NCBI GenBank assembly: GCA_963805625.1
Contig: CAWDVE010000013.1
Span: 192,001 to 256,000 of the forward strand
Direction of reading: 5' to 3'
Length of the DNA: 64,000 nucleotides
Origin: an uncultured Candidatus Rokubacteria bacterium
GTDB lineage: Bacteria > Methylomirabilota > Methylomirabilia > Rokubacteriales > DASRDR01
The position numbers and the translations under genes are program-made. Under the pieces are notes generated by a model, which saw only the letters and a list, made by a program, of their open reading frames with translations, searched no databases and was not told where the DNA came from. This document shows positions 45,735-49,242 of the stretch, in pieces (the stretch's first letter is position 1; each line of letters starts with the position of its first letter).

Positions 45735-47948
45735 TCAGTCCTCGTCGGCCGCCGCGCGCGCGACGGCGCCGCGATATTGGCGGAAGTGCCGCCACGCCTG
45801 ACGGAGACCCCCGACCCCGGGCCCCGGCAAGCCGGTGCGGCCCGGCTTTCGGCCCGGGCGAACCATGGCCCAGCGGCACACCGCGCCGAGATAGCGGGCG
45901 CGGGCGCCGAGTGAGTCGTGCAGGAGGAACAGCACCGCATTCCGGCTGATCGGGTCGAGCTCGTCCACCCGCTCGGCGGCGCGGAACAGGCGGCGCCCCG
46001 CCACCGTCTCGAGGTCCCGCTCGAGCCCGTCCCGCGGCGCACTGCGCAGGAAGTCCGGCGGCATCGGCAGCCCCAGCTCGCGGGACAACACCGCCGCCGG
46101 CACCCAGAATCCCCGCGGCGCCCGCATGGCGACCACCCACCGTGCCAGCCGCTCCCAGTCGAGGTCGGGGCAGCTCCGGAGGATCGCCAGGATGTCCCAG
46201 CCGGCACGGAGTCCGTGCGAGAAGCAGTGCTGCGCGCAGTGGACCACCGAGTGCAGAAGCAGGCCCTCCGGATCGAGCGTGTCGATCTCCTCGGCCGACG
46301 CCAGGGGGCGAGCGCGTCCCAGCATCTCCCCTTCTGGCAGCCCCCAGTGAGGCGCGGAGATCCGGGTGTGGATCTCCACCAGGATGCCCTGGACCGTCAC
46401 CGGGGCGAGGTGGTGCGTCGACGTCGGCCGGGCGTCGGGAACGCCGCGAAATCCGAGCTCGAGCAGCCGCCGGCGGAGGGCCGGCCCGCGGTCGGGGCCG
46501 ACGTAGAGGTCGATGTCACCGGTGGCGCGAGGCGGAACCGGGGTCCCTTCCTCGCGAGCCCGGAGGGTCAGCGCCATCCCCTTCAGCAGGACACCCCGCG
46601 CGCCGATCGAGCGGAGGCCGGCCTCCAACTGCCGGAGCACGTCCCGCTGCACCAGTTCGCGGATCCCCTCGCGCACCGCCGCTGCCCGCAAGGCCTCCGT
46701 GAAGAAGGCGGGCGCCCAGCGCGCGAGTTCCGCATCGCCCAGCGCGGGCGTGAGCGGCCGGGCCAGCCCGCACGCCGCCAGGTACGACGCCCATCGCTTC
46801 CAGTCGACGTCAGGCCGGGAGAGGATCCGCGCGGGCTCCTCCGTCCACCGCGCCCCGGGCTCCGCCGCGGCCCGGAGGAAGACCCGGGCGGCCCCCGGCC
46901 CGTTGATGTACCCGGCGTTAAGCTCGCCCCGCCGCCGGCTGTCCTGGATCACGAGCCACGCGGCCCGCCGCTCCGCGGCGAGCCCCGGGTCCACGAGCCG
47001 CAGTCTCAGCGCCGCGACCGCGCCCGCGTCGGACGTGATGTGGAGGCACAGGTCACAGATGCCGAGATAGCGCGCCCGGAACGGGAAGTGCTCGAAGCCG
47101 GGGAGCGCCCGCAGCTCGTCTCGCAAGCGGGCCGGCCCCGACGTGCGGATCGTGTCGAGGATCGGGTCCTGACGATGACGCTCCAGCAGGGTCCCGAGCG
47201 TCTCGGTCCGGAGCGAGCCGACGATCAGGGGCGACGATTCCGGCGCGAAGTAGGCCGGCCCGTTGCACGCTGTCAGGCGGCCGTCGTCCGTCACCGCCGG
47301 AATCGCGCACGCGGAGCAGAAGCCGTCCACCGCGCCGCCCATCGTCTCGGTCGGCAGGCCACGCGCCCGGCCGACCGCCTGGAGTCCGTAGAATCGCAGA
47401 CGCGTGCCGCGAAGGCCCTCGAACGGCGCGACCAGCGGGGCGAGCCCGTCCTCCCCTGCCGGCCCGGCCGGCACGACCAGGCTGATCCGGACGGGCAGGC
47501 CCACCTTCTCGGCGGCGCGGGCGATGAGGAGCGCCGGGGTCGGGCCCTGGAACTCGTCGTGGTAGCGGTCGACGCTGACGGCCAGCGAACCGAGGCCAGC
47601 CCTCCGGAGCGCCTGGACGCCGTGCCACGCCCGGGCGGCGGTGCGCCCCCAGGATCCGTTCGTCGTCAGCGACGTGGCGACGCCGAGTTGGCGCGCCGTC
47701 CGGACGAGCCGCAGGATGGTCCGAGGGCGGAGCATCGGCTCCCCGCCCGTCAGGTTGATCGCCCGGACGTCGCCTGCGGCCGCCTCACGGACACGGTCGA
47801 GAAGCTCTCGCTCCGTCGGCTCGTCCCGGAGATCGGGGCTGCTCTCCACGCTGCAGTGGCCGCATCGCATGTTGCAGCGGCGCGTCACCATGAGAGCTAT
47901 CGACGTGGCCGGCGGGAGCGTCTTCACTCGCATGCGGGCCGAGCTCAT
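45735..47948 (-). CDS. Radical SAM (YydG/EpeE-like, twitch-type) fused to an uncharacterised nucleotidyltransferase (NTP_transf_5-like)
   Basis: CNMRCGHC (47853-47876), TGGEP, TNGSWG, SVDRYH, CSAC..TACNGP..ICDLC; then LLKG..R.TGDIDLYV..VEIH and LLHSVVH. ATG 47948 overlaps the kinase stop. Confidence 0.85.
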   Translation of the reverse strand: MSSARMRVKTLPPATSIALMVTRRCNMRCGHCSVESSPDLRDEPTERELLDRVREAAAGDVRAINLTGGEPMLRPRTILRLVRTARQLGVATSLTTNGSWGRTAARAWHGVQALRRAGLGSLAVSVDRYHDEFQGPTPALLIARAAEKVGLPVRISLVVPAGPAGEDGLAPLVAPFEGLRGTRLRFYGLQAVGRARGLPTETMGGAVDGFCSACAIPAVTDDGRLTACNGPAYFAPESSPLIVGSLRTETLGTLLERHRQDPILDTIRTSGPARLRDELRALPGFEHFPFRARYLGICDLCLHITSDAGAVAALRLRLVDPGLAAERRAAWLVIQDSRRRGELNAGYINGPGAARVFLRAAAEPGARWTEEPARILSRPDVDWKRWASYLAACGLARPLTPALGDAELARWAPAFFTEALRAAAVREGIRELVQRDVLRQLEAGLRSIGARGVLLKGMALTLRAREEGTPVPPRATGDIDLYVGPDRGPALRRRLLELGFRGVPDARPTSTHHLAPVTVQGILVEIHTRISAPHWGLPEGEMLGRARPLASAEEIDTLDPEGLLLHSVVHCAQHCFSHGLRAGWDILAILRSCPDLDWERLARWVVAMRAPRGFWVPAAVLSRELGLPMPPDFLRSAPRDGLERDLETVAGRRLFRAAERVDELDPISRNAVLFLLHDSLGARARYLGAVCRWAMVRPGRKPGRTGLPGPGVGGLRQAWRHFRQYRGAVARAAADED

Positions 47949-48826
47949 GCCGGGGCGCGAGATCCCACGAGCGCCTCGACGGCCTCGGCCATCCGGGGAA
48001 GCGGTCCGCGACCGAGATCGAAGGCCGGGACGCGGTCGGCGAGGGGCGCGAGGATCCGGATGGCGTCCCCGAGCGTCCGGCGGGACCGCTGGTTCGTGTA
48101 GGGGACGAGCGCCAGCAGGGCATGCGCGGGAGCGATCTGCTGGGGGCGCGCAGGCTCGGCGACGCCACCGCGCCGGGAGAGAAACACGATGGCGGCGAGC
48201 CGCACCGCCGTGGATCGCAGGCACGGCTCGATCTCGTCGGGATGAAACAGTTGCGAGTCGGCGAGCGCGACACTGGACGGGCCGCGCATGACTCGCTCGA
48301 AGAGGTCGTCGCCCAGGAGCGCGCGGCTCGTCGACCTGAGGGACACGCGTCGCGGAGCCGGCCGTGCCTCGGCCGCCGCCGGCTCCACCATGGCAACGTC
48401 ATCGCCGAGCAACGCGGCGCCGCGCGCCCACAGCGCGCAGGCGAGCGTCGACTTGCCAGCCTCGCCACGCCCGGCGAGCAGAATTCCCCGGCCGTTCCAT
48501 GCAACCAGGGCACCGTGCGCGATCACGACGGGCGACTCCACGATCGCCGCGACCGCTCCGTACTCCACGGCGCTGACGGCTCGGGCAGCGCTCGGCACGC
48601 GCAGATCAGCGCCCGCCGAGGACCGGACCCACCACTCCAAGTCTGCCCCGTTGTCATTCAGGCGGTCGACCCGCCAGGCACGGCTCGGCTCACCCTCTTC
48701 GTGGGTCGCCCAGGGGCGGAACACGGTCGCCGCCAGGGTCCGGACGGCGGGGTCGTCGGACGTGAGCTCGAAGCGCAGGGGTCCCGCCGTCCAGCGAATG
48801 GGCGGGCCAGCAGACGCCTGGGTCAC
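47945..48826 (-). CDS. HPr kinase-related P-loop kinase
   Basis: HGALVA, Walker A GRGEAGKST, LLGDD. GTG overlaps the PqqD stop. Confidence 0.85.
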   Translation of the reverse strand: MTQASAGPPIRWTAGPLRFELTSDDPAVRTLAATVFRPWATHEEGEPSRAWRVDRLNDNGADLEWWVRSSAGADLRVPSAARAVSAVEYGAVAAIVESPVVIAHGALVAWNGRGILLAGRGEAGKSTLACALWARGAALLGDDVAMVEPAAAEARPAPRRVSLRSTSRALLGDDLFERVMRGPSSVALADSQLFHPDEIEPCLRSTAVRLAAIVFLSRRGGVAEPARPQQIAPAHALLALVPYTNQRSRRTLGDAIRILAPLADRVPAFDLGRGPLPRMAEAVEALVGSRAPA

Positions 48827-49110
48827 GAGACCGGCACGATCGCCCCGTGCCGGATCAGCTCGTCGAGGAACGACGAGACGTCTCGGACAGCGGCCTCCGG
48901 GGCCAGCGCCGGGAACCGCTCCCGCAGGGCAGCCGTGAGGTCCTCTGGGCGAGCGGGAGTGGCGAGCCGCTCCCAGAGCCGGCTGCCAGTGGGGTTCAGT
49001 ACGAGGGCACTACGGGACGTCCGGTGATAGAGCACCACCCGATCGCCGACGGGGGAAACCTCGACCTGCTCGGATCGCGCGTAGGCGGGATCCACGGCCT
49101 CGCTCACCAC
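48823..49110 (-). CDS. PqqD-family RiPP recognition element (RRE)
   Basis: 95 aa; VGDRVVLY, LNPTGSRLWERL, DV..FLDELIRHGAI. Confidence 0.88.
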   Translation of the reverse strand: MVSEAVDPAYARSEQVEVSPVGDRVVLYHRTSRSALVLNPTGSRLWERLATPARPEDLTAALRERFPALAPEAAVRDVSSFLDELIRHGAIVPVS

Positions 49111-49199
49111 GCGAGGCGCCGGCGCATCTGGCGCCCCGCCCTACCCTCCACCGTCCACATCAAGCGAATTATCGACTCCCGCATAGAGGACGTCACAGC

Positions 49200-49242
49200 A
49201 CCCTAGCATCCGGGACGCGAGGCTCGTCAAACTCGTCAACTC
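49200..49242 (-). promoter_or_regulatory. Candidate promoter of the RRE-kinase-rSAM operon
   Basis: Tandem TTGACGAG repeats followed by extended -10 TGCTAGGGT (49208-49200). Confidence 0.5.

Follow-up and report, generated by a model that had tools for sequence, protein, structure and literature searches.

A radical SAM–nucleotidyltransferase fusion in a candidate peptide-modifying cassette of Candidatus Rokubacteria, with putative precursors outside its operon

What do three overlapping genes of an uncultured Candidatus Rokubacteria bacterium act on, and what might they make? The genes lie on the minus strand of a 64,000-nucleotide stretch (the window; contig CAWDVE010000013.1 of assembly GCA_963805625.1, positions 192,001 to 256,000). 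They encode a stand-alone RiPP recognition element (RRE; RiPP, a peptide made on the ribosome and modified after translation), a putative HPrK-like kinase, and a fusion of a radical S-adenosylmethionine (SAM) domain to a nucleotidyltransferase (NT) domain of the NTP_transf_5 family. A first-pass annotation, made from the sequence alone, had proposed that they modify a peptide. In support of this idea, we found a family of short precursors in 9/9 fusion-bearing relatives versus 2/52 other genomes, counts that come from related genomes and whose pattern is repeated in another phylum by two Gemmatimonadota genomes (G061 and G062). Judged from sequence, these precursors are very probably the substrates of a RiPP-type system with these enzymes, apparently a RiPP class not yet described, in which one enzyme is altered and the parts are otherwise known. 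The cassette comprises the following genes and domains (aa, amino acids):

48823..49110, minus strand: RRE gene (PqqD family, stand-alone), 95 aa; PF05402 E 2.7e-13, above cut-off
47945..48826, minus strand: putative HPrK-like peptide kinase gene, 293 aa; PF07475 and TIGR04352 both below cut-off
45735..47948, minus strand: gene for the radical SAM::NTP_transf_5 fusion, 737 aa, one frame
46974..47948, minus strand: radical SAM domain of the fusion, EpeE/YydG-like; CxxxCxxC 25/29/32, auxiliary-cluster Cys 211/228/298/301, Asn229 at EpeE Cys223
45735..46973, minus strand: NTP_transf_5 domain of the fusion; LKG 455-457, R474, D478/D480, E525, H527, D585, helical flanks; PF14907 E 5e-26

The gene models proposed earlier were reproduced, including the three frames and the two 4-nt overlaps (GTGA and ATGA) that join them. 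The RRE passes the Pfam cut-off as a stand-alone PqqD protein, and its true start is probably 49107, where aligned relatives have an ATG. The Hpr_kinase_C match to the kinase is slightly short of the Pfam cut-off (E 3.6e-7, 30.3 versus 33.3 bits), and its best NCBIfam match, HprK_rel_A, is also sub-cut-off (59/200 bits); its residues His104, Lys125, Asp142, and Asp143 are invariant in 25/25 aligned sequences. Pfam detected both expected domains within the single 737-aa frame: Radical_SAM matched at aa 21-137 (E 5e-17) and NTP_transf_5 at aa 380-609 (E 5e-26; 92.2 bits against a cut-off of 31.2). It found no SPASM match. The best NCBIfam match of the fusion is the YydG epimerase model TIGR04078 (aa 16-312), below cut-off at 74.9/300 bits.

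The fusion is not the product of a lost stop codon. A homologue search returned 209 relatives of 405-1290 aa, and most of the best 120 are 700-790 aa long, carry both Pfam domains, and show 44-95% identity. The full-length protein occurs in more than 100 protein clusters from several phyla, with taxon names on the listed relatives that include Binatia, Vicinamibacterales, Gemmatimonadales, Abditibacteriaceae, and Sumerlaeaceae. A search for shorter forms gave 42 matches, of which the strong ones resemble contig-end or frameshift fragments and the others are MoaA-like. Scanning 13/64 parts of the genome set, we recovered at least nine full-length loci, from Rokubacteria, Gemmatimonadota, Abditibacteriota, Sumerlaeota, and Verrucomicrobiota, as well as from a bin labelled Mesorhizobium. 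(This last locus, L022, is 72% GC in a record titled Mesorhizobium carmichaelinearum, and the taxon label of the bin may be wrong.) Distribution is patchy: 9/61 relatives carry the fusion, and in the order of G061 both fusion and precursor are confined to G061 itself, 1 of 121 genomes.

Among the nine full-length loci, the kinase gene adjoins the fusion in seven and the RRE gene in eight (L020 is cut by a contig end). In G061 and G062 the cassette is split in two places with all four parts retained, and in G062 a precursor directly adjoins the kinase gene. We inspected 66 hand-picked flanking open reading frames (ORFs) from 11 loci. They were unrelated housekeeping genes (purine synthesis, RuvB, RelA, ThiF, PdxA), together with one GT4 and one MurG-type glycosyltransferase, three major facilitator superfamily transporters in Gemmatimonadota-type loci, and a LexA that was the sole S24 match. 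No lasso cyclase or B2 protease was among them, as the first-pass annotation had said of the window. Since the flanks are unrelated housekeeping genes, the cassette moves as a unit and lies outside lasso and polysaccharide clusters. At the syntenic site of one relative (G008; L192, G008:C6:128700-128950), two short fusion pieces are left and the cassette is almost wholly deleted. The full-length fusion was absent from the best 80 matches on viral contigs, which also held zero exact matches to a degenerate precursor pattern, and plasmids gave no fusion match at E 1e-20.

Related loci carry one to five tandem precursor genes of about 40-60 codons before the RRE gene; they are directly upstream in 6/9 full-length fusion loci (L016, L019, and L021-L024; L020 is cut by a contig end). 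A profile of these peptides matched 675 proteins. In the best 120, a 23-residue leader, Y-E-P-P-R-[VI]-E-x-V-L-T-P-x-x-L-E-R-E-[VI]-L-Y-A-G, has six invariant positions and precedes a variable tail (in short form, YxxPx[VI]E…LEREV.YAG). Ala22 and Gly23 are invariant and Tyr21 occurs in 118/120; in a second set of 72 precursors taken from loci, Phe replaces Tyr in 3/72 and Ser or Gly replaces Ala in 5/72. The end of the leader, L[ST]xxEL…AG, resembles double-glycine leaders, which suggests that cleavage would follow the AG. Codon differences in the leader (0.21/0.17/0.53 by position) fall mostly at third positions. Seven precursors had zero NCBIfam matches and nothing above cut-off in Pfam. The two genomes with a precursor and no fusion are G006, which is 68% complete, and G008, where the match is weak and the cassette mostly deleted. 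The start of the leader, YxxPx[VI], agrees with the lasso-type RRE-binding motif (PMC13381572).

The tails that follow YAG are mostly 5-13 residues long and rich in D, P, G, S, T, A, and V, with Cys in one of the best 120. All contain Ser or Thr (120/120 in the database set and 72/72 in the locus set), and Ser is the last residue in 8/120. After removal of tails that were more than 50% alike or longer than 15 residues, 78/78 contained Ser or Thr, against a mean of 69.4 and a maximum of 77 in 20000 shuffles, and in 75/78 the residue was within the first five positions, against 57.2 in shuffles. Phosphorylation of a tail Ser or Thr by the kinase is likely, by analogy with lasso-peptide kinases, in which the H-K-D-D motif is required (PMC9266682). 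In the systems for linear polyphosphorylated peptides (LPP), which combine an RRE, an HprK kinase, and an NTP transferase with a YxxPxV leader, Ser3 of the core is phosphorylated (PMC13381572), and PsmK and PsmN together yield phosphoglycosylated Ser (PMC9266682).

The NT domain passes as a member of NTP_transf_5 by its Pfam score, its acidic metal ligands, and a Pol-beta-type fold. Its motifs and the acidic ligands D478, D480, and E525 are conserved across 57 sequences. In a model with pLDDT 86.8, the nearest folds were MenT1 (Z 13.0, root-mean-square deviation [rmsd] 3.2, 174 aligned) and ANT(2'') (Z 12.3); a sequence search of the PDB gave 0 matches and Foldseek none at E 0.001. We put the chance that this domain decorates the phosphate slightly above even.

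To which enzyme is the radical SAM domain related? EpeE was its top match by hidden Markov model (HMM), Foldseek (E 1e-11), and VIA (Z 26.2, rmsd 3.4, 307 aligned; runner-up Z 17.9); the structural model of the domain has pLDDT 88.0. EpeE has an auxiliary cluster and uses Cys223 as hydrogen donor (PMC13012085). The equivalents of its auxiliary-cluster ligands (C211, C228, C298, and C301) are conserved here, and these four positions are Cys in fused and stand-alone enzymes alike. Alignment to 8AI6 places C228-N229 opposite C222-C223, so that Asn stands at the donor position. Among 50% representatives, residue 229 is Asn in 36 and Thr in one of 37 fused enzymes, while 81 of 94 stand-alone relatives have Cys. 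The fused enzymes also have invariants of their own (R185, G209, R224, and Y233) and a frequent C214. Arg185, present in 37/37 fused versus 10/94 stand-alone enzymes, aligns with MoaA Arg192, which we take to be a phosphate ligand. In a quick, midpoint-rooted tree of 54 chosen rows, a branch (SH-aLRT 94) separates the fused enzymes from the other rows. Because Asn replaces the donor Cys223, the chemistry is probably not plain epimerization, and a radical step on the peptide that does not epimerize it stands at even odds. A complex predicted from the radical SAM domain, the RRE, SAM, and a remote precursor scored 0.83, and a control with the radical SAM domain replaced scored 0.82. Two stand-alone YydG-like proteins, P0324 (679 aa, two matched stretches) and P0408 (620 aa), represent other fusions or duplications of EpeE-like domains.

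These data are consistent with a pathway to which we assign a probability of about 0.58. The RRE would grip the YxxPx[VI] leader of the precursor, the kinase would phosphorylate Ser or Thr in the short variable tail behind YAG, and the NT domain would attach a nucleotide or sugar to that phosphate. The radical SAM domain would abstract a hydrogen from the tail backbone, with oxidation, elimination, or cross-linking likely over epimerization, and a host protease would cleave after YAG. We infer these reactions, the cleavage, and the order of steps, which the first-pass annotation had given as phosphorylation, nucleotidylation, then radical chemistry. Phosphorylation has close precedent in LppK, PadeK, and PsmK and decoration partial precedent in PsmN, with LppN silent; for a radical step of the proposed kind we found no precedent in openly accessible main texts. 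The short, acidic, unexported tails speak weakly for a role of the peptide as a signal or intracellular ligand and against a membrane-active antibiotic such as epipeptide.

Several observations weigh against this pathway. LppN was inactive in a heterologous host (PMC13381572), and the PsmN reaction was left unresolved (PMC9266682). Some loci (L100, L105) have no RRE adjoining the fusion. No peptidase, cyclase, or exporter is common to the loci among the 66 flanking ORFs, and release of the tail therefore lacks an explanation. Cys214 could act as a substitute hydrogen donor. Finally, Ala or Val occurs in 73/78 tails versus 64.4 expected, the sole enrichment among six control sets (P 0.0007; the tail P values overstate, because tails and genomes are kin). 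This enrichment fits EpeE-like epimerization of aliphatic residues; Val, Ile, Leu, and Met taken together are not enriched (61 versus 63.2 expected).

The last two points belong to the main rival, in which the enzyme remains an epimerase with another hydrogen donor (Cys214 or a conserved Tyr) and produces phosphorylated tails with D-residues. The EpeE fold and all four auxiliary-cluster cysteines are retained, the family-specific Cys214 is present in about 85% (49/57 and 31/37 fused enzymes; missing from stand-alone top counts), and EpeE C223S still slowly turns over (PMC13012085). However, Cys is found at 229 in 0/37 fused enzymes and in 0 of 57 top counts, and Cys214 is Ala or Ser in 8/57, with no substitute in the three inspected. 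We consider this explanation unlikely.

Still less probable is radical attack on the conserved Y-A-G itself, through an aryl cross-link or cleavage of the backbone at the Tyr, with phosphorylation as the only change to the tail. The near-invariance of this motif would suit such a target and, as the cassette has no protease, a radical cut could free the tail. Yet the substitutions seen there, Phe for Tyr and Ser or Gly for Ala, are as at a protease or docking site, and EpeE takes C-alpha hydrogens from aliphatic residues.

If tail modification is the function of the cassette, where are its substrates in this genome? Two features lie upstream of the RRE gene:

49200..49231, minus strand: promoter-like element, putative in function; TTGACG, 18-19 nt, extended -10 TGnTAGGGT
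49141..49191, minus strand: leaderless precursor 3' remnant, 16 codons; leader end VLYAG, 11-residue Ser/Asp/Gly tail, stop

A relative, G013, is 95% identical to the window to either side of a gap; between window positions 49194 and 49150 it has an insert of about 880 bp that holds five precursor genes. The window keeps 43 bases there, reading as a precursor end joined to the promoter-like element. Comparison of the two sequences points to a putative deletion of the precursor array from this operon, with an assembly error as the alternative. The left junction is outside any repeat, and no read-set contig bridges the junction by 31 letters. Contigs from X2, possibly the source sample, abut there without differences, while those from X1 and X8 end or diverge at 49180-49191, as an intact array would give. 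The operon's own promoter, predicted earlier, fared in part: the blocks of the motif TTTGACG…GATGCTA[GC]GGT are invariant in the window and three relatives (G013, G014, and G009), but a consensus scan picks another site (9/12, at 49196-49168), which straddles the deletion junction. One RNA run gave short, scattered pieces only.

The proposal that the substrate is encoded nearby or in trans stands in its second half. Near the cassette only the 3' remnant is left, while other parts of the genome hold five intact precursors (C10:524204-524332, two at C10:366087-366471, C10:237461-237592, and C25:13330-13473), none of them near another RRE; they would serve as substrates of this cassette in trans. 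The genome encodes six further PqqD-family proteins. Four of the five are less than 400 bp from a tyrosine-integrase gene or fragment (one fragment just 25 residues). The precursor at C10:524204-524332 adjoins the integrase, ahead of helix-turn-helix (HTH) and AAA_25 genes, inside an att-bounded 13-kb element with a 39-bp tRNA-Leu repeat on both sides. This element (L300:1-11500; G000:C10:522477-535510) has integrase, HTH, AAA_25, and HTH_17 genes and one precursor and is satellite-like; Pfam structural phage genes were absent among 11 genes scanned.

Across nine genomes we counted 20 remote precursor sites, excluding arrays truncated at contig ends (L206 and L207) and one kinase-linked site (L213). 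Nine are less than 600 bp from a tRNA (five distinct tRNA loci; such space makes up 0.9% of the length of this genome), five lie by integrase sequence, and 13 meet either description. Because of this proximity, remote precursors seem to be carried by integrative elements or left behind by them. In one genome that also has an operon array (G009), four near-identical remote precursors lie just upstream of tRNA-Cys (L205:6084-6923).

The missing array raises a further alternative, that the cassette here is a decaying relic and the remote precursors unexpressed debris. G008 lost most of its cassette, and several remote precursors are in degraded elements. Against this, all three frames and the catalytic motifs are intact here, the promoter-like element is kept, and the remote precursors, whose leaders and Ser/Thr tails are undamaged, are also present in at least five relatives with arrays of their own. 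We regard decay as improbable. Very improbable is a viperin-like scheme in which the radical SAM domain modifies a nucleotide that the transferase then links to the phosphopeptide: channelling is suggested by the fusion, the fold class ranked after EpeE is that of the viperins (Z 17-18), Arg185, Arg224, and Gln190 are invariant, and the LPP authors propose that LppN needs a partner making a rare substrate (PMC13381572), but the EpeE match is eight Z units higher and spans the whole domain, viperin HMM matches from PADLOC extend over aa 14-131 and no further, the NF038283 model scores 57.6/180 bits, and the nearest stand-alone relatives are YydG-like (30/31 scanned). PADLOC had no match for the kinase or RRE.

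Is the system already known? As in RRE-dependent RiPP systems, short linked precursors with a leader and variable core accompany an RRE and enzymes with intact motifs; openly accessible main texts yielded no description of the precursor family or the fusion. With B. subtilis EpeE/YydG (PDB 8AI1-8AI6; TIGR04078; PMC13012085), the enzyme shares the whole-domain fold (TM 0.80 to target, Z 26), the radical SAM cluster, and an extended twitch domain that holds a four-Cys auxiliary cluster. It differs in its low identity (16-18%; 74.9/300 bits), the Asn at donor Cys223, its fusion to a nucleotidyltransferase, the accompanying RRE and kinase, and the acidic Ser/Thr tails. LPP (LppA/B/K/S/N/D; PMC13381572) likewise has a discrete RRE, HprK-like kinase, and NTP transferase, no cyclase, and several precursors with a YxxPxV leader, variable C terminus, and Ser soon behind the leader. 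However, LPP loci lie in Bacillota polysaccharide regions, have a different leader (YxxPxVLxHQxIxFETxxS), and encode a SipW-like peptidase and MsbA-like exporter, both missing from our 66 flanking ORFs; "radical SAM" and "rSAM" have 0 occurrences in the LPP main text.

Paeninodin and pseudomycoidin systems (PadeK, PsmK, PsmN; PMC9266682, PMC8498205) share the kinase H-K-D-D, a nucleotidyltransferase (sometimes fused, to B2), and the lasso-type RRE-binding motif. The cassette, in contrast, has no cyclase or B2 protease and has a radical SAM partner, and its Ser/Thr are internal and position-variable, not C-terminal. The one B2 protease of the genome lies on a different contig, where it has a separate RRE. 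HPr-rel-A (TIGR04352/04353) and SynChlorMet (TIGR04248/04249) models match weakly and below cut-off (kinase 59/200 and 23.7/125 bits, RRE 26.4/35 and 25.3/100 bits), whereas the precursors match no NCBIfam model. SynChlorMet also combines RRE, kinase, and radical SAM genes, with separate SPASM enzymes; no paper under that name was found in the openly accessible literature. By sequence, the cassette appears to resemble a tailoring module of the LPP or phosphorylated-lasso kind to which an EpeE-type enzyme has been added, and it falls outside each of these groups.

As a minimal system of four parts (a 45-aa peptide, RRE, kinase, and one fusion enzyme), the cassette bears on two questions: which group NTP_transf_5 enzymes attach to phosphopeptides, and how an EpeE-type enzyme acts once the donor cysteine is gone. 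Natural tails number in the hundreds, implying that the enzyme set is tolerant. If precursors do travel alone as integrative cargo, uncultured soil bacteria would have a way to exchange peptide products while the enzymes stay in place. It is a doubtful extension that tRNA-targeting elements deliver substrate-only genes to resident enzymes, that in this genome the pathway would depend entirely on remote, partly mobile substrates, and that the epimerase-derived radical SAM enzyme performs donor-less radical chemistry on nucleotidylated phospho-Ser/Thr, as a new RiPP class.

Other candidates for cassette parts were set aside. A 26-aa frame overlapping the RRE start has no matching start in G013, and an upstream pyridoxal-phosphate aminotransferase and downstream deacetylase are common only within the genus. 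The genome has one C39 peptidase, on contig C16, with no link to the cassette shown. Other loci hold related parts. A second RiPP-like cluster (L180:7539-17476; G000:C12:71500-81500) encodes an RRE and a 48-aa precursor (YxxPxI leader, Cys/Trp-rich end), together with three DUF455 ferritin-like proteins, an HPrK-like kinase, NTP_transf_5, an Asn-synthase-like protein, 2-oxoglutarate and PhyH oxygenases, and an ABC transporter. At L181:6763-14234 and L182:6479-14534 (G000:C17 and C24), PqqD, kinase-like, and NTP_transf_5 genes lie amid glycosyltransferases, with a small separate radical SAM gene at L182. At L183:6611-11072 (G000:C21), an NTP_transf_5 gene lies opposite a PqqD-like protein and a MauE-thioredoxin fusion.

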